Origin: a virus | Taxonomy: Duplodnaviria > Caudoviricetes | Direction: 5' to 3' (one strand) | IMG/VR virus record: IMGVR_UViG_3300032303_001800 | Span: 14,431-78,430 of that record | DNA: 64,000 nucleotides | In this document: positions 624 to 54,272 of the stretch, piece by piece | Position numbering within the stretch: position 1 is the first letter of the stretch | Layout of the letters: each line of letters starts with the position of its first letter | Made by a program: the position numbers and the translations under genes | The notes under the pieces: model-generated | Seen by the model: the letters and a program-made list of their open reading frames with translations, nothing else | Databases searched by the model: none | What the model was told of the DNA's origin: nothing

Positions 624-637
624 CGAACACTTGTTCG
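624..637. promoter_or_regulatory. LexA/SOS-box-like palindrome
   Basis: CGAAC-ACTT-GTTCG, matches the Gram-positive/actinobacterial CGAAC-N4-GTTCG consensus. Confidence 0.65.
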
Positions 638-651
638 CCCCGCTCCGCGCC

Positions 652-774
652 CTAGAGCCACACCTCCGCAACCTCGCAGGGAGCGCACGCCTCAAGCGTG
701 ACGCACGAACGCGAGGCGGGTGAATACACCTCGACCTCGACCGTGGGGGCATCGGCCCCGCAAAAATCGCACAT
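652..774 (-). CDS. 40-aa CxxC...CxxC zinc-ribbon-like micro-protein (MCDFCGADAPTVEVEVYSPASRSCVTLEACAPCEVAEVWL)
   Basis: Hand translation; GGAAGGG RBS; paired CxxC motifs. Confidence 0.6.
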   Translation of the reverse strand: MCDFCGADAPTVEVEVYSPASRSCVTLEACAPCEVAEVWL

Positions 775-865
775 AATAACCCTTCCGCGGGGGAGCATCC
801 ACCGCTAGAACCACAATAGCAGGAAAACGCCGAGGTGGGGAAAATCGCGCATGCGCGATGACTTG

Positions 866-905
866 ACACGGGGCAAAAGAAGAGGGGCGGGTTTCCCCGC
901 CCCTC
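866..905 (-). terminator. Intrinsic terminator after the 59-aa gene
   Basis: Minus strand GAGGGGCGGG-GAAA-CCCGCCCCTC followed by TTCTTTT. Confidence 0.7.
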
Positions 906-914
906 CCCCGCGTG

Positions 915-1094
915 CTACATGTAGTCGCACGCCTCGTTTTCCGCGCCGTGCGTGGATGGGGTGCCCCAAACGATTTCGGTGGGGGTGCCATCGTAGAACG
1001 GTTCGATGTGACCGCAGGCGGAACAGCGAACGGAAAGCACATCCGAGATGGGGCAAAGGCGTGCGCCCTCGTCCCCGCAAAATGAACACTTCAT
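915..1094 (-). CDS. 59-aa zinc-ribbon-like protein (MKCSFCGDEGARLCPISDVLSVRCSACGHIEPFYDG...)
   Basis: Hand translation; GAAAGGG RBS; CxxC...CxxC; own promoter and terminator. Confidence 0.7.
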   Translation of the reverse strand: MKCSFCGDEGARLCPISDVLSVRCSACGHIEPFYDGTPTEIVWGTPSTHGAENEACDYM

Positions 1095-1135
1095 AAATCC
1101 CTTTCGTTTTATCGGCTTCGTTACCGATAGGAGAG

Positions 1136-1164
1136 AGTCTAGTCAGACTATTTAGGGAAAGCAA
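1136..1164 (-). promoter_or_regulatory. Promoter of cassette D
   Basis: TTGCTT-17nt-TAGACT, leader hairpin ATCGG-TAACGAAG-CCGAT. Confidence 0.7.
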
Positions 1165-1381
1165 CTATTTTTTTGCGCGATACAAAAAAGATACAGAAAC
1201 TTCACAGAAACTTTTCCAGAAAGTTTAGTGCGCGTGCGCGATTGCGTGTGCGCGATGATTTCCGGACAGAGAGTTTCCCAGAAATCGCGCACGCGGGAGA
1301 CAATACCGTGCGCGATGGACTCGGCGGGCAAAAAAAAGAGGGGCAGGGCTCACGCCCCGCCCCCCCCTCAAAGGCTCCCCC

Positions 1382-1600
1382 CTAAAACCATCGGGAGATG
1401 CCCGCCCAAAGGCGTAGGGCATCCTCTCGGGTGCGGTAGAGGTGTCCGTCATCGCTCAACGGCTTACCATCGGCGCCAAACAGGGTAAGCGTGAAGAAAG
1501 AGCCGTGGTCAAACTCATGGCTCGGGTTGTAGTGGCGGTTGATGGTCGCCGTGACCTCACCCGCGGGCGAAGTGAGAGTGTCAGTCAGTTCGTAAATCAT
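1382..1600 (-). CDS. 72-aa hypothetical protein
   Basis: ORF track; GAAAGGG RBS, own promoter; GC hairpin plus T-tract at about 1329-1370. Confidence 0.75.
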   Translation of the reverse strand: MIYELTDTLTSPAGEVTATINRHYNPSHEFDHGSFFTLTLFGADGKPLSDDGHLYRTREDALRLWAGISRWF

Positions 1601-1645
1601 TGTAAATCCCTTTCGTACTCACCGGCATTGTTGCCGATGGTACAG

Positions 1646-1674
1646 AGTTTAGTGAGCGTTTTTTAGAAAGTCAA
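1646..1674 (-). promoter_or_regulatory. Promoter of cassette E
   Basis: TTGACT-17nt-TAAACT, leader hairpin TCGGCA-ACAA-TGCCGG. Confidence 0.75.
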
Positions 1675-1744
1675 GCATCGCGCGTGCGCGATAGGGGAAA
1701 ACCCCGATAAACTTTGCGCGATGACGTAGGGTTTGGTTTGGGGG

Positions 1745-1758
1745 CGAACACTTGTTCG
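1745..1758. promoter_or_regulatory. LexA/SOS-box-like palindrome
   Basis: CGAAC-ACTT-GTTCG, identical to 624-637 including the GGGG/CCCC flanks. Confidence 0.65.
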
Positions 1759-1773
1759 CCCCCGCCCCTTGCC

Positions 1774-2052
1774 TTAGTCATCCTCTCGCGGGTTGGTGTG
1801 GGTGAGTAGGAGTTCGACTAGTGCGGTGTAGGCATCCTCGCTAGGGGAGCACCACGCTAGGCGGGTGTGGGCTAGGGCGTTCGCCCGCACCGCTTCCGCT
1901 TCCGTGGCGTACCAAAAGGCGAACAGGGAGAAATAGCGTTCGCCGTCAGATGCGCTGACCTGAACGCCGAAATAGGGGTGGGTGTCCTCGGCGTACCAAC
2001 CCCAATGACGGGGTTCGTTGGTCAAGGTAACTTGGGCGGAAGTGTAAATCAT
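1774..2052 (-). CDS. 92-aa hypothetical protein (MIYTSAQVTLT...)
   Basis: True start at 2052 after GAAAGGG; the 5' end (acaATGATTTAC) is shared with the 1382..1600 gene. Confidence 0.75.
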   Translation of the reverse strand: MIYTSAQVTLTNEPRHWGWYAEDTHPYFGVQVSASDGERYFSLFAFWYATEAEAVRANALAHTRLAWCSPSEDAYTALVELLLTHTNPREDD

Positions 2053-2098
2053 TGTAAAACCCTTTCGGTTGGTGTCGGTATTGTTACCGATGGTACTG

Positions 2099-2127
2099 AG
2101 CCTAGTGAGCAAAAAAGTAAAAAGCAA
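2099..2127 (-). promoter_or_regulatory. Promoter of cassette F
   Basis: TTGCTT-17nt-TAGGCT, leader hairpin TCGGTA-ACAA-TACCGA. Confidence 0.7.
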
Positions 2128-2135
2128 CTATTTTT

Positions 2136-2315
2136 TTGCGCGATACATTTGTTCGTCAGAATGTTTTCAGAAATCTCAGCGGGGGCGTTGGGTTACGTGC
2201 GCGATGGATTTTGTGCGCGATACATTTGTTTGTCAGAAAGTTTTCCAGAAACATCGCGCAGGGGTTTCCGTATGCGTGCGCGATACATTTTCTCCTCAGA
2301 AAGTTTCCAGAAATC
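2136..2315 (+). repeat. Three imperfect copies of a roughly 38-bp unit (GCGCGATACATTT...CAGAAAGTTTTCCAGAAA)
   Basis: Copies start near 2138, 2215 and 2278; related units near 246 and 1175. Confidence 0.7.
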
Positions 2316-2353
2316 CTCGGAGCGCGCAGGGGTTACGTGCGCGATGCCGATGG

Positions 2354-2465
2354 CGAACAAGTGTTCGCCGCAAAAAAGCGAACATTTGTTCGCTTTAGTT
2401 ATCCACAGACTTATCCACAGGCTGTGGTTTATTCTGTGGGTTATTGGATGGCGAACGCTTGTTCG
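2354..2465. promoter_or_regulatory. Cluster of three SOS boxes enclosing DnaA boxes
   Basis: CGAAC-N4-GTTCG at 2354-2367, 2379-2392 and 2452-2465; TTATCCACA at 2399-2407 and 2411-2419; degenerate inverted boxes at 2423-2431 and 2435-2443. Confidence 0.65.
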
Positions 2466-2583
2466 TTTTCTCCTATTCCTGACTAGTTAAGTCATGTTTC
2501 GGGCGGGCGTGCGGGGGTATGCGTTTTTATGCGTGGAGATGTGTTTTTAATCATCGGGCTAGATGTGCGCGATGTGGCGCGTA

Positions 2584-2693
2584 GGGCGCGGGATGTGATA
2601 ACATCCCGCGCCCATCGTGGCGCGTGCGTGATGCGTGATGCGTGATGCGTGATGCGTTGCGATAGGCGCGGGCGTGATGCCCGCGCCTATCGC
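2584..2693. repeat. Two perfect hairpins flanking a (TGCGTGA)4 tandem repeat
   Basis: 13-bp stem at 2584-2613, heptamer tandem at 2625-2657, 15-bp stem at 2659-2693. Confidence 0.85.
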
Positions 2694-2703
2694 GTGCGAT
2701 GCG

Positions 2704-3588
2704 TTACAACGCTACCGCGTGACCGCGCTTTACCACACGCGATGTCCAATCTTCGACATCTTCGATGTCATCCCATAGACCGGCGATGTCTGAGCGATGC
2801 GCAATACGCTGTCGAACATCGTTCGACATCGTAACGCTCTCATCGTGGCGGGCAAGGATGGACTCAGCGAGTGACCGCGCACCGGTAGCGATACCGCGAG
2901 ACTCCAGATTATCCAGATGCCCTACGGGGTCGCGCCACAATACAGGGCAACCACAAACGCGCACCGCGAGAAACTTTCGTTCCTCGTTGATGTGCGCGAC
3001 TGTCTCGCTTTCATCGCGACTCCATGCCGTCATTGGAGCCAACAACATCATCGCGTTGTTATCGTGACCGCCTGACGCGTAGAGCAGACTGTTTAGCAAC
3101 AGTCCATCGGCGTTAATAGTGATGATGTTCCATGCGCTCTGCGAATGTTGCGCGTTGCGAATGATAAGAACGCCACCATTCGTTAGGAACGATGTCATCT
3201 CTGCCAACGATGCGAAAGTGCCACTAGTCGCGATGACATCATCCATGAGCGCGCTTAGCACCTTGTCGCGCTTAGTGCGTGTTGCCATCTTCACGCGAAC
3301 ATCGTTCGCGGGCGTGATGACATTGACACCCTCGCGCTTTTTGTCTTTCGTGACATTGTCAGAAAGTTGCGCGATGACTGATGCGATGAACGCGTTAGCG
3401 CGATTGTAAGTAGTCATCGCTCCATGAGTGATAACACCACCATCACTAGGCGCGATGTTCGTTCGACAAATGTGTCGCTCTGCTATCTCATCGGCGATGT
3501 GTGATGCGATGCCGTTAGCGCGTGCCATGTCTCCAATCAGTTTGCGCGTACGGTCGCGGTCTTTCGTGTTGTTGTTGATGCGTGTCAT
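2704..3588 (-). CDS. 294-aa hypothetical protein (probably early)
   Basis: Long ORF; likely start MTRINN at 3588 after GAAAGG; no motif recognised. Confidence 0.75.
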   Translation of the reverse strand: MTRINNNTKDRDRTRKLIGDMARANGIASHIADEIAERHICRTNIAPSDGGVITHGAMTTYNRANAFIASVIAQLSDNVTKDKKREGVNVITPANDVRVKMATRTKRDKVLSALMDDVIATSGTFASLAEMTSFLTNGGVLIIRNAQHSQSAWNIITINADGLLLNSLLYASGGHDNNAMMLLAPMTAWSRDESETVAHINEERKFLAVRVCGCPVLWRDPVGHLDNLESRGIATGARSLAESILARHDESVTMSNDVRQRIAHRSDIAGLWDDIEDVEDWTSRVVKRGHAVAL

Positions 3589-3724
3589 GTTGTTACCTTT
3601 CGTTGAGTGGCGAACGCGGGCGCGCTCTTTAACCACACTCAAACAATACACCAACCATTACACGCAAGCAGCCATTGGGACCAATGCAGTGCCCACACGT
3701 CTGAATTTTACACCTCCTATATAA

Positions 3725-3771
3725 GAACATATGTTCAAACCGTAGACAGGCTACAAAAAGTATGCTATGCT
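3725..3771 (+). promoter_or_regulatory. Promoter with an adjacent SOS-core palindrome; leaderless start
   Basis: GAAC-ATAT-GTTC at 3725-3736; TAGACA-17nt-TATGCT at 3743-3771; ATG 7 nt downstream. Confidence 0.55.
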
Positions 3772-4552: not shown

Positions 4553-4760
4553 TCCTTTGCGATAGCAAAGACCCAATAACCCAAATTTTAAGAAAAATTT
4601 TTGATGCGCCGTTGGCGCGCGGGCAAAAAATTTTTTAGGCCTATGCCCAGAATTTTTTTAGGTGTTTCTACTGTTATGAACAAATGTTCAGAGGGGCCCT
4701 TAAATAAATAGAATGTGTCTTGCGTATTTTGGCAAAGCAGGTCAAACTAGACAGAAAGTT

Positions 4761-29317: not shown

Positions 29318-31324
29318 ATGAGAACTACAGACCCCAACGTACTTCTCCAGTCATTTTTCCGTTATTCACACGGTCAAATTTTAGCAACTAGCCCTATGGG
29401 TCAGGGTGTCTATTACGGTACAGTTATCGAGACTAACGCAACTAACACTAGCCTTGCCGCTGGTTACATGCGCGTCAGCATTCCGTATCTCATTGCAGAC
29501 GAAGTGTACGCAGAAATTCCATTTGCGGGAACAACTGCTCCCCCCAATGGGACTACCGCTGTTGTTGGGTTTTCCCCCGACGGCAATCTTATTTCGCTTG
29601 GTTTCATTGGATGGGAATCATCCGGCGGCGGCGGCGCGGGAACACAGGGTCCACAGGGTTTTCAGGGCAACGCCGGGGCTAACGGCTCTCGGGGTTACCA
29701 GGGTTACCAGGGCACCGCTGGTGGACAGGGTGCCGGTGGAGCACTCGGCTACTGGGGTTCTTTTTACGATACCACCACACAATCTTGCGCCACAACCAAC
29801 ACGGCGTACGGGGTGCTTTGTAACACTACTGCTGGCTCTAACGGAGTCAACGTTGACCCGGTTATAAAAAGTCGCCTTATTTTTGACCACTCTGGTGTTT
29901 ATAACTTGCAATTTTCGTCGCAGTTTGAAAATCAGGGCGGTGGCGGTAGCGGAACAACAGTTCGGATTTGGCTTCGCGTAAATGGGACTAACATAGTAGA
30001 GTCCGCGGGTAGTGTTGACGTTAACAACAATAGCCCACTCGTAGTGAGTTCTTGGAACTATGTTCTGCAATTATACGCCAACGACTATGTAGAATTAATG
30101 TGGGCAACCACAAACACCCACATTGTCATGTTGCACAACACAACTGCAACACCGGCACCAGGCACTCCATCGGTTATTTTTACCGCTACCCAGGTAATGT
30201 ACACCCAAGAAGGTCCCCAGGGGTTTAGTGGTGCACAAGGCTACCAGGGAAATCAGGGCTCGACCGGAATCTTTGAAGGTGCTACGCCCCCAGGCGATGT
30301 TACTCTTGTCTGGGCAGACACCTCGAGCCCCTACCAGGTTGGCCCGCAGGGTTATCAAGGTTATCAAGGCGCTGGCTACCAGGGTTCGCAAGGCTCGCAG
30401 GGTTACCAGGGTGTAACTGGCGTTTACGTCAATGCCACCGCTCCGTCTAACACGTCTCTTGTTTGGGCCGATACCTCAACTGCCTTTTCCGTGGGCCCGC
30501 AAGGTTACCAGGGCGCCACTGGTTCGCAGGGAAATCAAGGTTCCACCGGTCCCCAGGGTTCGCAAGGAACGCAAGGTACAAATGGCTCGCAAGGCTCAAC
30601 TGGAACCCAAGGTTTGCAGGGATATCAAGGCTATCAGGGTTATCAAGGCAAAACTGGCGTTTACGTTAACGCCACGGCGCCCACCGATACCTCTCTTGTG
30701 TGGGCTGACACTTCAACTGCTTTTTCCGTTGGTCCACAGGGTTATCAAGGAAATCAGGGAAATCAAGGCGCTGGCTATCAGGGGGTTCAGGGTGCAACTG
30801 GCTCACAGGGTTATCAGGGAAACCAAGGTTTAACAGGTGCAGGTACGCAGGGTAGCCAGGGCGCATCAGGCTCTCAGGGAAACCAGGGTGCTCAAGGTGC
30901 TGCTGGTTCCGCGCCAAATGCTTGGACCACTGGTCAATACACTACTAACGTTACAATTTCCAGTACAAATGTTAACGCCGTTAACCCCGGCTCCCAAAAC
31001 GTAACTGTTAGTGGGTTTACCACTTATTTTGTTATTTATAACTGTAACGAATCTGCTAACGCATCAACCACTGGTCGCGCTATTAACTTGTACTTTATTG
31101 CAACTGGAGGCTCAATTACTGGAGTTGGTAGCACTAGTAGTAACGTCCTTATTTTGGGCAACACCAACAACGTTACGGGTGTTCGTGCAAACCACGCCGG
31201 TTCGACTATCATAACTACGTCAACAACTGGTTCTGTAACGTTTACACCTTGGATGTACCTTGGTGGTACAACTGACACAGTTTCAATGGCTCTCTTTTCA
31301 ATGCAAGTAATAGGAATCCGATAA
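29318..31324 (+). CDS. Baseplate spike (gpV-like N-terminus) fused to a collagen-like fibre
   Basis: GVYYGTV...MRVSIP...PPNGT.AVVGF OB-fold-like start; G-X-Q repeats; repeated VYVNATAP..TSLVWADTS modules. Confidence 0.7.
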   Translation: MRTTDPNVLLQSFFRYSHGQILATSPMGQGVYYGTVIETNATNTSLAAGYMRVSIPYLIADEVYAEIPFAGTTAPPNGTTAVVGFSPDGNLISLGFIGWESSGGGGAGTQGPQGFQGNAGANGSRGYQGYQGTAGGQGAGGALGYWGSFYDTTTQSCATTNTAYGVLCNTTAGSNGVNVDPVIKSRLIFDHSGVYNLQFSSQFENQGGGGSGTTVRIWLRVNGTNIVESAGSVDVNNNSPLVVSSWNYVLQLYANDYVELMWATTNTHIVMLHNTTATPAPGTPSVIFTATQVMYTQEGPQGFSGAQGYQGNQGSTGIFEGATPPGDVTLVWADTSSPYQVGPQGYQGYQGAGYQGSQGSQGYQGVTGVYVNATAPSNTSLVWADTSTAFSVGPQGYQGATGSQGNQGSTGPQGSQGTQGTNGSQGSTGTQGLQGYQGYQGYQGKTGVYVNATAPTDTSLVWADTSTAFSVGPQGYQGNQGNQGAGYQGVQGATGSQGYQGNQGLTGAGTQGSQGASGSQGNQGAQGAAGSAPNAWTTGQYTTNVTISSTNVNAVNPGSQNVTVSGFTTYFVIYNCNESANASTTGRAINLYFIATGGSITGVGSTSSNVLILGNTNNVTGVRANHAGSTIITTSTTGSVTFTPWMYLGGTTDTVSMALFSMQVIGIR

Positions 31325-43789: not shown

Positions 43790-44099
43790 ATTCCTGCCAA
43801 GCATCGTCCTCTGAAGTACCTGATGAAAGCCATTTTTTACGGTCTTCCTGCGAGGCTCCGCCCCAGATACCATATTCGACTTTGTTCTCCAGAGCGTATT
43901 TAAAACATACGTCCTGTACGGGGCAAGTATTGCAGAGTGCTACCGCCTTCTTAGCGAGGTGAGATTTCCCCTGACCGGGGAAGAAGTTTTCCAGACCGCT
44001 ATCAAGACAAAGTCCATCAAAATAAAACGAGGGCCTCATGCTGTCGACAAGGCGCATGAACATCAGCATCTCGTATTCTTCAAATGAACTAGCGCGCAT
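43776..44099 (-). CDS. whiB: WhiB family Fe-S transcription factor
   Basis: Four Cys (GLC...CNTC..QDVC), FFP, GIWGG. Confidence 0.92.
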   Translation of the reverse strand: MRASSFEEYEMLMFMRLVDSMRPSFYFDGLCLDSGLENFFPGQGKSHLAKKAVALCNTCPVQDVCFKYALENKVEYGIWGGASQEDRKKWLSSGTSEDDAWQEFKKD

Positions 44100-46459: not shown

Positions 46460-47478
46460 TACTTCACTCCTCTAAGTGTGCGAGAACTGGGGCGGAACTT
46501 CTTGAACTGCTCAAAGATTTCGGGGGCCTCACGCCTCAAACGGTCGGTGTCCAAAGATTCTACCTCTTTACCAGCCTTGTAAGTCAGAATAACGTTCCCG
46601 TCCACAGTAGCGTACTCGGCGTTACCGACTACTTCAATAATCTTGGCACGAAGACCCTTGCGGACTTTATCGGCCTCTTCTGCGGCCACCTTGGCGGCAC
46701 TGAATTCCTCCCAGAGCGACTTCAGTTCCATGCCACCCTCAAGGCCCTTGCCGGCTTCGTGGCGAGGGTAACGGGCTGCTTGCGCTGCTTCTGTGGCATC
46801 AGAACCGTCGACTTCGGGTGCAGTGTTGGTCTGAACAAGGTCCCAAAACTGTTGCTCAATGATAACTAGGTTTTCCGCGAGTTCTTCGTCCCAAGCAAGG
46901 TGACGAACCTGCAAACCCGTTGGCGGCAAAAGCGCCGCAAAGATAATCTCGTGAACGCCTGTGACAATTCCGTAGTGAACGGTTTGCAAAACGTAACTTT
47001 GAGGGATGGAATTGTTCGACCACTGGTGCACGGTGCCGGGGCTGGCAATGCCCGAGGTCTTGACTTCAAGGATTGCCTTGACCCCCGCTGGCTCAATGTT
47101 GTTCTTCCAGTCGGTTACAACGCCGACAGGGAAATCCGGGGTGGGCTCGACAATCCAAAAGTCGATATTGGCGAACATAAAGTCATTCTTTTCTGATACA
47201 AGAATGACCGGCCATGCCACGACGGCCTGCTTGTGGTCGTGGGCGTACTTCTCTGCAATAACGCGCTCTAGTCGGTGGCCCCAATCGGTAGCCTCATTGC
47301 CTACGTTTTCACGTTCAATAAGGTTGGTACGTTCAGCCCACAAAGCGTAGGCAGACTTGTACTTGTTGACACCACAAACGGTACCGGCGTCAGAACCGCC
47401 GAGACCATTGGCGCGGTAGGCCAACCACTCTTCTTCGGGCATGTCCCACGTTGGGATGATTGCTTTGAACTTATTCAT
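46459..47478 (-). CDS. YqaJ/lambda-exonuclease family recombination nuclease
   Basis: WL.YR..GLGGSD....G.NKYKS, ANID, LEVKT, Y.LQ..HY. Confidence 0.92.
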   Translation of the reverse strand: MNKFKAIIPTWDMPEEEWLAYRANGLGGSDAGTVCGVNKYKSAYALWAERTNLIERENVGNEATDWGHRLERVIAEKYAHDHKQAVVAWPVILVSEKNDFMFANIDFWIVEPTPDFPVGVVTDWKNNIEPAGVKAILEVKTSGIASPGTVHQWSNNSIPQSYVLQTVHYGIVTGVHEIIFAALLPPTGLQVRHLAWDEELAENLVIIEQQFWDLVQTNTAPEVDGSDATEAAQAARYPRHEAGKGLEGGMELKSLWEEFSAAKVAAEEADKVRKGLRAKIIEVVGNAEYATVDGNVILTYKAGKEVESLDTDRLRREAPEIFEQFKKFRPSSRTLRGVK

Positions 47479-47701
47479 TGTTACTTTCCTTTATCTTAAT
47501 AGTGCGAGCGACATTGTCCTCAAACTCGAGGGTCCCACTCTCTCGCAACTCCTGACACACATTATACACAGTTCCGAGCGATAGTCCAGTCAATTTTGCA
47601 AGGTCTCTAAAACTAGGACCATACTTGTGACTGGAGTACCAAGAAACAACCGCCTCCCTGACGGCAACCGTGTTAGAAACTCTAGTATTAAATGTCGTCA
47701 T
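47471..47701 (-). CDS. LexA N-terminal DNA-binding-domain-only protein
   Basis: [44 protein letters not shown] matches the LexA wHTH pattern (PS.REI...G....V..HL..L...G.I.....AR.I.I); no peptidase domain; overlaps the recA stop. Confidence 0.75.
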
Positions 47702-53846: not shown

Positions 53847-54272
53847 ATGATTTCACAACAGTGGGCCGACAATTCAATTTGCCGCGGAAGCGGTGAGGAT
53901 TTTTACGGCACAGAAATTACAGAGAAAATGACAGCACTTTGCGGGGCTTGTCCCGTGCGTAAAGAGTGCCTAAGTCACGCTTTAACCTATGAAGCACACG
54001 GCTATTGGGCGGGTACAACTGAACAATGGCGTGCTAAAGAGCGACAACGACTGGGCATGAAGCAGCCCTTCATCGACTCTGGCGTTGCCCGCGTTGTCTC
54101 TAAGTCGGCTTACGAATTAAAACCTATTGAACATAACACCGAGCGGGGCTACCAAGCCCATCAACGGCGAAAGATTCCGTTTTTCTATGACGGAGCCAGA
54201 ACGGAATGCGGTTGCCAAGAGGCACATCGAGCCTACATCAAAAATTATCGAGCAAAGAAAGTGTCAAAATGA
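53847..54272 (+). CDS. whiB: WhiB-like protein with a C-terminal His/Cys extension
   Basis: SIC...LCGACPVRKECL.HAL...GYWAG; C-terminal H.TERGYQ.H...C.C..AH. Confidence 0.82.
   Translation: MISQQWADNSICRGSGEDFYGTEITEKMTALCGACPVRKECLSHALTYEAHGYWAGTTEQWRAKERQRLGMKQPFIDSGVARVVSKSAYELKPIEHNTERGYQAHQRRKIPFFYDGARTECGCQEAHRAYIKNYRAKKVSK

Follow-up and report, generated by a model that had tools for sequence, protein, structure and literature searches.

The early region of the phage described here carries repeated, exact copies of a cellular operator, the SOS box CGAAC-N4-GTTCG to which actinobacterial LexA binds. The window, by which we mean the whole 64,000-nucleotide stretch that was analysed, corresponds to bases 14431-78430 of an IMG/VR phage record that is complete at 78,430 bp and has terminal repeats (IMGVR_UViG_3300032303_001800; the phage is called G000 in our comparisons) and contains exact boxes at positions 624, 1745, 2354, 2379, and 2452. 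Judged from sequence, these sites are genuine copies of the actinobacterial LexA operator and would be expected to bind LexA, and the phage probably reads, blocks with, or soaks up the SOS repressor of its host. We give roughly even weight to the fuller reading that host LexA operators have two cis-acting roles in phage transcription, one in a boundary region at the head of the early genes and one in hairpins at the junctions between them.

Actinobacterial LexA operators in the early arm

The five perfect boxes that the initial annotation had listed are all exact. A mean of 0.12 is expected in the window, and a chance origin was rejected because none of 100 dinucleotide-preserving shuffles reached the observed count. 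Three further full boxes, at genome positions 8089, 10134, and 11717, lie left of the window and bring the 78,430-bp genome to eight, all inside its first 19 kb. The shorter core GAAC-N4-GTTC occurs at window positions 3725, 4678, and 29952. The first two had also been annotated and are both real, the one at 4678 being the weaker candidate; the site at 29952 departs from the spacer rule described below and is probably a chance occurrence. The initial annotation had proposed a scan with an actinobacterial LexA matrix, and a position weight matrix (PWM) built from 27 cellular sites upstream of recA bore the prediction out. It returned eight phage sites at 17.8-20.3 bits, all of them in the early arm, where shuffled sequences give 0.4 sites at 14 bits or more, and no site on that scale was found elsewhere in the phage genome.

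The cellular comparison set consisted of the recA loci of Actinomycetota whose RecA is closest to that of the phage. GAAC-N4-GTTC is found 50-250 nt upstream of recA in 42 of about 44 of these loci, with the consensus CGAAC-R-NN-Y-GTTCG. The commonest 14-mer of the phage, CGAACACTTGTTCG, is identical to the recA box of six Actinomycetota genomes, and the lexA genes of four Acidimicrobiia also carry a box, one of which (CGAACGTCTGTTCG) is identical to the phage box at genome 11717. The earlier identification of the motif as a LexA operator is thus upheld at both recA and lexA. Every phage box also obeys the cellular R-NN-Y spacer rule, which a 4-nt hairpin loop would not demand and which therefore counts in favor of operator identity.

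Box positions at gene junctions and the array boundary

The genes of the early arm are encoded on the minus strand in a cassette array of 17 kb, and the boxes at 624 and 1745 fall at two of its junctions (Table 1). They start 14 and 15 nt past the stop codons of a 40-aa zinc-ribbon gene (652-774, minus) and of the gene at 1774-2052 (minus), respectively, and form the cores of 9-10-bp G+C hairpins. The first hairpin reads GGGGCGAAC-AAGU-GUUCGCCCC (-17.1 kcal/mol); the second has a 10-bp stem (-20.4 kcal/mol) followed by the tail AAACCAAACCC. The three sibling junction boxes left of the window start 16-27 nt past stop codons, and all five are the core of longer G+C palindromes, with stems of 9-15 bp and -17 to -32 kcal/mol in which G.U wobbles are kept. 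Only copy 11717 is followed by a U tract. Compared with an intrinsic terminator, the sites at 624 and 1745 have the G+C hairpin soon after a stop codon and lack the U tract (one and no T, respectively, in the 8 nt after the stem), as do several junction hairpins of the phage that have no SOS box.

According to the initial annotation, the same two boxes were operators of early promoters about 70 bp away. The distance was correct, at 68 nt from box 624 to the -35 element TTCCAA and 70 nt from box 1745 to TTGACT, but the boxes are the cores of hairpins in the terminator slot and do not overlap a promoter as LexA operators do. No box was found inside a promoter in the phage, with the qualification that no promoter could be assigned at 2354-2465, and no Rfam family was found at the boxes. 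Each SOS hairpin is followed by a C-rich tail, a ATCGCGCA half-site, an ATCGCGC-N2-GCGCGAT palindrome, and then the next promoter; upstream of the promoter at 528-555, these elements are the palindrome ATCGCGCacGCGCGAT (559-574) and a half-site at 596-603. The other junctions, about 18 in number, carry ordinary hairpins with GGGGCGGGC-type stems in the same slot, and several share tails. Downstream of boxes 624 and 1745, the modules closely duplicate those found after hairpins without an SOS box at genome 14396 and 14062, which places both boxes in the terminator slot rather than in the promoter.

The half-site GCGCGAT/ATCGCGC occurs 99 times, and the ATCGCGC-N2-GCGCGAT palindrome 19 times, all in the first 20 kb of the genome (genome 2.5-17 kb). 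Nearly all early promoters are preceded by one set of these elements, which is accompanied by a recurring TTTCTGGAAA-type motif; the half-site motif is also found in the relatives G002, G003, and G032.

Such modularity raises the alternative that boxes 624 and 1745 belong simply to a mobile terminator or insulator module, in which an SOS-like stem arose once and was spread by recombination, LexA binding being without function. Several features would suit this: the start 14-15 nt past stop codons, the stems that reach 4-5 bp beyond the box with their G.U pairs and folding energies, the U tract of copy 11717, the tails and downstream modules shared with non-SOS hairpins, and the single 14-mer common to four copies. 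Neither G003 nor G032 has junction boxes, despite arrays of this type, and cassettes shuffle between relatives as do the promoter early stem-loop elements (PeSLs) of other phages (PMC2839356). However, the inner stem is the exact cellular operator, including the R..Y spacer rule, and the 14-mer remains perfect where its flanks have diverged. The loops differ as well, as GNRA or UNCG loops close 12 of 18 non-SOS junction hairpins while the five SOS hairpins have AAGU or GUCU, which suggests that the operator and not RNA stability sets the loop. The inner SOS stems also contain A·T pairs that weaken otherwise pure G+C stems, so that, with these loops, the operator sequence appears to be kept at some cost to the hairpin. 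Since the motif is moreover stemless in the boundary cluster and in relatives, we consider a hairpin without LexA function quite unlikely.

The other three boxes of the window (2354, 2379, and 2452) lie in a gene-free stretch of 570 bp at the head of the cassette array, where they flank the DnaA boxes at 2399-2444. Together with the core box at 3725, this cluster is positioned between the array and a divergent pair formed by a 295-aa gene and gene L. Box 2452 was also tried as the -35 element of a plus-strand promoter and rejected, as no acceptable spacing was found. No function emerged from Pfam, PHROGs, or the ESM Atlas for either gene L or the 295-aa protein. A single-protein locus search returned no relatives of the 295-aa protein, and an alignment query was needed to recover relatives that such searches missed.

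Other features of this region were noted in passing. Downstream of the 295-aa gene, window 2560-2700 contains two long perfect palindromes, one of 13 bp (-27 kcal/mol) and the other of 15 bp (-33 kcal/mol), and the heptamer GCGTGAT is repeated in tandem at about 2627-2655. A short stretch after the last boundary box (TCCTGAC...TTAGTCATGTTTCG) is conserved between G000 (window 2466-2496) and G003 (L089:1575-1600); neither a promoter nor an open reading frame could be assigned within it.

Relatives, phage-encoded proteins, and a model of control

Relatives found by a RecA-based search are syntenic with this phage and share 40-80% amino acid identity with it across the structural and replication modules; several are fragments. 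At the array boundary of G002, DnaA boxes are followed by three perfect SOS boxes that lack G+C stems, and its gene L has two core boxes at distances of 19 nt and more upstream of the -35 element (TTGACA). The boundary of G003, G009, and L326 carries two perfect boxes and a third that matches at 13/14, all without G+C stems, the last of them 23 nt upstream of the gene L promoter. In G003, compared with G000 (L183-L185), the array runs in the opposite orientation to the structural genes and its cassettes stand in another order, which would fit PeSL-like shuffling by way of the repeated junction modules; the boxes are still at the boundary. No junction box was found in the full G003 array. G032, a complete relative of 78.9 kb whose array is also of the ATCGCGC type, has only one box (CGAACATCTGTTCA). 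It lies 15 nt upstream of the gene L -35 element, on the stretch that separates gene L from the 295-aa gene homologue. The early-arm fragments of G004 and G005 contain no boxes, and the absence of boxes from G001 is uninformative, as this is a fragment without the early arm.

A box therefore lies 6-23 nt upstream of the gene L -35 element in G000, G002, G003, and G032, all four relatives that hold the region have one at this position, and gene L itself is homologous among them (E 1e-13 for G002-G003, 3e-17 for G032-G002, and 1.6e-5 for G000-G002). This distribution, G032 included, suggests that the oldest site is the box beside the divergent pair. From the same comparisons, the boundary cluster is common to three lineages and the junction boxes appear to be an expansion specific to this phage.

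Expansion of this kind would also be expected if the selected function were titration, with the boxes soaking up host LexA as the phage replicates and turning on the SOS response without damage, for which any non-coding position would suffice. The eight boxes in 78 kb compare with 13-15 perfect boxes in each of three Acidimicrobiia genomes of about 4 Mb, a density about 30-fold higher, so replicating phage DNA would outnumber the chromosomal sites. Box number has grown within the lineage, from one in G032 and three in G002 and G003 to 8-10 in G000, and the junction boxes are too distant from promoters for classic repression. On the other hand, the positions are highly regular (the terminator slot, the array boundary, and the side of the gene L promoter), unrelated phages also fix a box at a set point after a terminator, and relatives with one to three boxes could titrate little LexA. 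Titration would follow any LexA binding and need not be what was selected, and we think a sink of this sort unlikely to be the primary role of the boxes.

A phage-encoded RecA, claimed in the initial annotation, is confirmed as bacterial-type, and the gene for a 76-aa winged-helix protein overlaps its end (Table 1). That arrangement is conserved in G001-G003, and other relatives encode a winged-helix protein that is 82-83% identical. The small protein had been described as consisting of a LexA DNA-binding domain (DBD) only. It is a small winged helix whose fold may be LexA-like, but it misses the cut-off of the Pfam LexA family: LexA_DNA_bind (PF01726) scores 13.4 bits (E 0.068) against a cut-off of 23.7, behind HTH_IclR (22.4 bits) and HTH_24 (20.5 bits), and a six-frame family search found no LexA_DNA_bind match. 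Its best sequence match in the PDB is an IclR regulator (E 0.02), and seven homologues, in all of which the recognition helix is invariant, are annotated as HTH_24 or IclR. Such annotation does not exclude a LexA-type domain, because the HTH_IclR model also scores about 30 bits, above its own cut-off, on genuine Acidimicrobiia LexA (G025:C5:60465-60620 and G026:C1:1948622-1948741). An AlphaFold2 model of the protein (predicted local distance difference test score 81) superposes best on the LexA DBD 1lea (TM 0.76, root-mean-square deviation 1.3 A), in a Foldseek search that gave no E-value stronger than 5e-3 and similar scores for many winged helices. Profile alignment with hhalign against four Acidimicrobiia LexA DBDs, run without a control profile, gave 93% probability and 24% identity over 59 columns. 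The model and the alignments together suggest a small winged helix that is possibly a remote relative of the LexA DBD.

Could this protein, as a diverged LexA DBD, replace host LexA at the boxes or compete with it? The hhalign match extends across the whole domain, 1lea is the closest superposition, the recognition helix is invariant, and the gene is kept next to recA; there is also a precedent in gp6 of the tectivirus GIL01 (PMC6182141). Yet the phage protein has 24% identity to LexA where gp6 has 44% (PMC6182141), it falls below the LexA_DNA_bind cut-off with homologues assigned to HTH_24 or IclR, and the structural and profile matches carry the limits given above. Neither one-box relatives of the G032 type nor unrelated box-array phages without a detectable homologue tie the boxes to the protein, although the failure to find a homologue in five such unrelated contigs is uninformative, these records being 12-60% complete. 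Host LexA would be expected to bind with or without the phage protein, because the boxes equal the cellular operator, and we judge it distinctly improbable that the winged helix is the intended binder.

Under our preferred reading, in which host LexA acts in cis, LexA at the boundary and divergent boxes would, together with DnaA, repress the control region or wall it off until LexA is lost. The junction boxes cannot occlude a promoter, because some 105 nt separate them from the transcription start that comes next. LexA bound at their hairpins might act as a roadblock to read-through, by analogy with stoperators, and would make a weak terminator without a U tract responsive to damage as well. 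Both effects would end once LexA is lost, which could come about by SOS induction in the host or by cleavage stimulated by the phage RecA, for which a candidate role as LexA co-protease is plausible given its bacterial type. With so many boxes, binding would inevitably titrate some LexA, and selection may favor that effect too.

Several observations weigh against such control. Most boxes appear to be dispensable, because neither the complete G032 nor the early arm of G004 or G005 has any at the boundary or the junctions. The neighborhood of recA and the winged-helix gene is free of boxes. A single 14-mer accounts for four of the five junction boxes and could have spread by module recombination without selection. 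The box at 3725 lies upstream of the gene L -35 element with a gap of 6 nt, an unusual site for a repressor. The flanks also differ from those of cellular operators, which are A/T: the -1/+14 flank is G/C in seven of the eight phage boxes, and G is rare there (10%) in cellular sites. Finally, to our knowledge LexA has not been described as an elongation roadblock.

The remaining genes are those of a myovirus-like phage. PHROGs and Pfam matches identify a structural module (terminase, portal, major head, sheath, and tape-measure proteins), a recombination operon (RecA, the 76-aa winged helix, a YqaJ exonuclease, and Erf), and a replication module (helicase, initiator, and DnaB-like helicase). 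A Peptidase_S24 repressor and a tyrosine integrase were searched for in the phage, and neither was found. Two WhiB-family genes (Table 1), which are markers of actinobacterial phages, point to an actinobacterial host, and the closest relatives of the phage RecA are those of Acidimicrobiia (56-60% identity). The phage is probably one of uncultured, freshwater-type actinobacteria. Comparison of the early arm with 50,697 phage records by Megablast and blastn, in search of cultured relatives, gave only tRNA matches. Left of the window, the gene of an ArdC-like anti-restriction protein ends 16 nt ahead of the SOS box at genome 8089; a single-protein locus search found no relatives of this protein.

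Table 1. Boxes, promoters, and genes discussed in the text (window positions unless stated otherwise)
Feature	Position	Strand	Description
Promoter downstream of box 624	528-555	minus	-35 TTCCAA (550-555), 16-nt spacer, -10 TACAAT (528-533)
SOS box CGAACACTTGTTCG	624-637		Core of minus-strand hairpin 620-641
Promoter downstream of box 1745	1646-1674	minus	TTGACT (1669-1674), 17-nt spacer, TAAACT
SOS box CGAACACTTGTTCG	1745-1758		Core of minus-strand hairpin 1740-1763
Boundary SOS box CGAACAAGTGTTCG	2354-2367		Weak 7-bp hairpin only (2352-2369, -10.5 kcal/mol)
Boundary SOS box CGAACATTTGTTCG	2379-2392		Minus strand AGCGAAC-AAAU-GUUCGCU then UUUUUU, terminator-like
DnaA boxes	2399-2444		Perfect TTATCCACA at 2399 and 2411 and two inverted degenerate copies, between SOS boxes
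Boundary SOS box CGAACGCTTGTTCG	2452-2465		Top PWM score (20.3 bits); no extended stem
295-aa gene	2704-3591	minus	Half of conserved divergent pair; G032 homologue 27% identical, E 3e-5
Core box GAACATATGTTC	3725-3736		Divergent promoter region; ends 6 nt upstream of -35
Promoter of gene L	3743-3771	plus	TAGACA, 17-nt spacer, TATGCT
Gene L, 257 aa	3779-4552	plus	Near-leaderless; conserved ORFan
Core box GAACAAATGTTC	4678-4689		Convergent-terminator gap; 9.1 bits; no hairpin, no nearby promoter
WhiB-family gene 1	43836-44015	minus	E 1.6e-18
76-aa winged-helix protein	47471-47701	minus	Overlaps end of recA
Bacterial-type RecA, 344 aa	47688-48722	minus	E 7e-111
WhiB-family gene 2	53862-54035	plus	E 1.3e-11
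ArdC-like anti-restriction protein, 300 aa	L186:8119-9021 (left of window)	minus	phrog_7245 E 1e-74; HExxH motif (FHETAHSTGH)

Unrelated viral contigs and known systems

Arrays of SOS boxes are also found outside this lineage. More than 120 IMG/VR contigs have two boxes within 30 bp of each other, and in four unrelated contigs (L225, L216, L247, and L209) nearly all junctions within an array of small genes have a box. The boxes of L225 come after the T-rich terminator tail of the upstream gene, and in all four contigs they adjoin lineage-specific palindromes and stand outside hairpins. A BLAST comparison of L225 with cultured phage records returned nothing useful. Another contig, L222 (IMG/VR 3300050509_000427), contains nine copies of CCGGCGAACGCCAGTTCGCCGCTAC, whose arms match the SOS box but whose GCCA spacer violates the R..Y rule, so that another kind of repeat, bound by a protein of its own, may be involved.

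DnaA boxes recur with these sites. Across 80 viral loci, perfect DnaA boxes are enriched 10-fold within 300 bp of LexA boxes (0.33 vs 0.032 per kb), and strictly interleaved arrays are present at L190:10790-10940, L196:14230-14440, and L241:2850-3080; the L196 array also alternates with GTGAC-N4-GTCAC palindromes and lies upstream of small early genes. Because the two boxes recur together in non-homologous phage regions, both would seem to be used as sites for host factors. Such composites might be read as replication origins or hubs, in which case the cluster at 2354-2465 would be a host-DnaA-dependent origin gated by LexA rather than an element of transcriptional control. The two perfect and two degenerate DnaA boxes between the SOS boxes, the same composite in G002, and the position of some interleaved arrays beside helicase or replication genes are in keeping with this idea. 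But an initiator, a DnaB-like helicase, and a helicase are encoded elsewhere by the phage itself, the boxes of G003 persist with no perfect DnaA box close by, and boxes 624 and 1745 would be left unexplained, which together make an origin highly improbable.

A wider form of the cis-acting reading may be proposed, tentatively and with considerable doubt. In it, the host LexA operator, built into terminator stems and repeated beside DnaA boxes, would let damage and replication proteins gate read-through of the 17-kb early array ("LexA stoperators"), with RecA and box number providing release, and similar modules of terminator, LexA box, and promoter in unrelated viral contigs would reflect a general, undescribed design of phage early regions.

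The number of perfect SOS boxes in the phage exceeds half that of an entire Acidimicrobiia chromosome from the clade nearest to its RecA, and most of the phage boxes are at gene boundaries rather than on promoters. If LexA binds them, the early program would be coupled to the DNA-damage state of the host, the SOS response of the host would probably be disturbed as well, and the modules would supply testable sequence rules for a terminator gated by a host repressor. The similar modules in unrelated contigs, often with DnaA boxes, suggest that phages widely read the status of the host chromosome.

LexA control is known mainly in temperate phages, with one or two boxes in a promoter, as in CTXphi and coliphage 186. 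Compared with the cellular operator of Gram-positive bacteria and actinobacteria (the SOS or Cheo box), the phage sites have the same 14-bp palindrome and R-NN-Y preference, including 14-mers identical to those at Acidimicrobiia recA and lexA, but they are far denser, have G/C flanks, and in five cases occupy terminator-slot hairpins instead of promoters.

The closest known system is the Bacillus thuringiensis tectivirus GIL01, which encodes a truncated LexA homologue, gp6, and in which P1 and P3 are repressed by host LexA with gp7 (PMC4551915, PMC6182141). Our phage resembles it in carrying host SOS boxes, some in tandem, in encoding a small winged helix that may be LexA-DBD-like, and in that no cleavable repressor of its own was found. 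The differences are that GIL01 has its boxes inside promoters and is a temperate linear plasmid-prophage of 15 kb, whereas this phage is myovirus-like, has a 78-kb genome that encodes RecA and in which no integrase was found, and has its boxes at gene junctions.

A second parallel is with the stoperators of cluster A mycobacteriophages, which are asymmetric, orientation-dependent, and bound by the immunity repressor of the phage itself (PMC9283540). In both cases many copies of one operator are spread over the intergenic gaps of an actinophage, placed, by analogy, to stop elongation and not initiation. The sites described here, however, are palindromic copies of a host operator, their stopping activity is putative, and no Peptidase_S24 repressor was found. 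PeSLs of T4-type phages provide a third, each described as a promoter with a stem-loop terminator and with no mention of a host repressor site (PMC2839356). As in that system, repeated modules of stem-loop and early promoter separate small non-essential genes, and cassette order is shuffled among relatives; the difference is that a subset of the stem-loops in this phage is a LexA box.

Full-text literature searches found no paper that describes LexA-box arrays at phage gene junctions and none that pairs "LexA" with "stoperator." The use of LexA by phages is already known, with GIL01 as the nearest case (PMC4551915, PMC6182141). The features that appear to be new are the clade of the host, the apparent absence of lysogeny genes, the large number of boxes and their pairing with DnaA boxes, and the LexA box as the core of terminator-slot hairpins in modules that shuffle as PeSLs do (PMC2839356).

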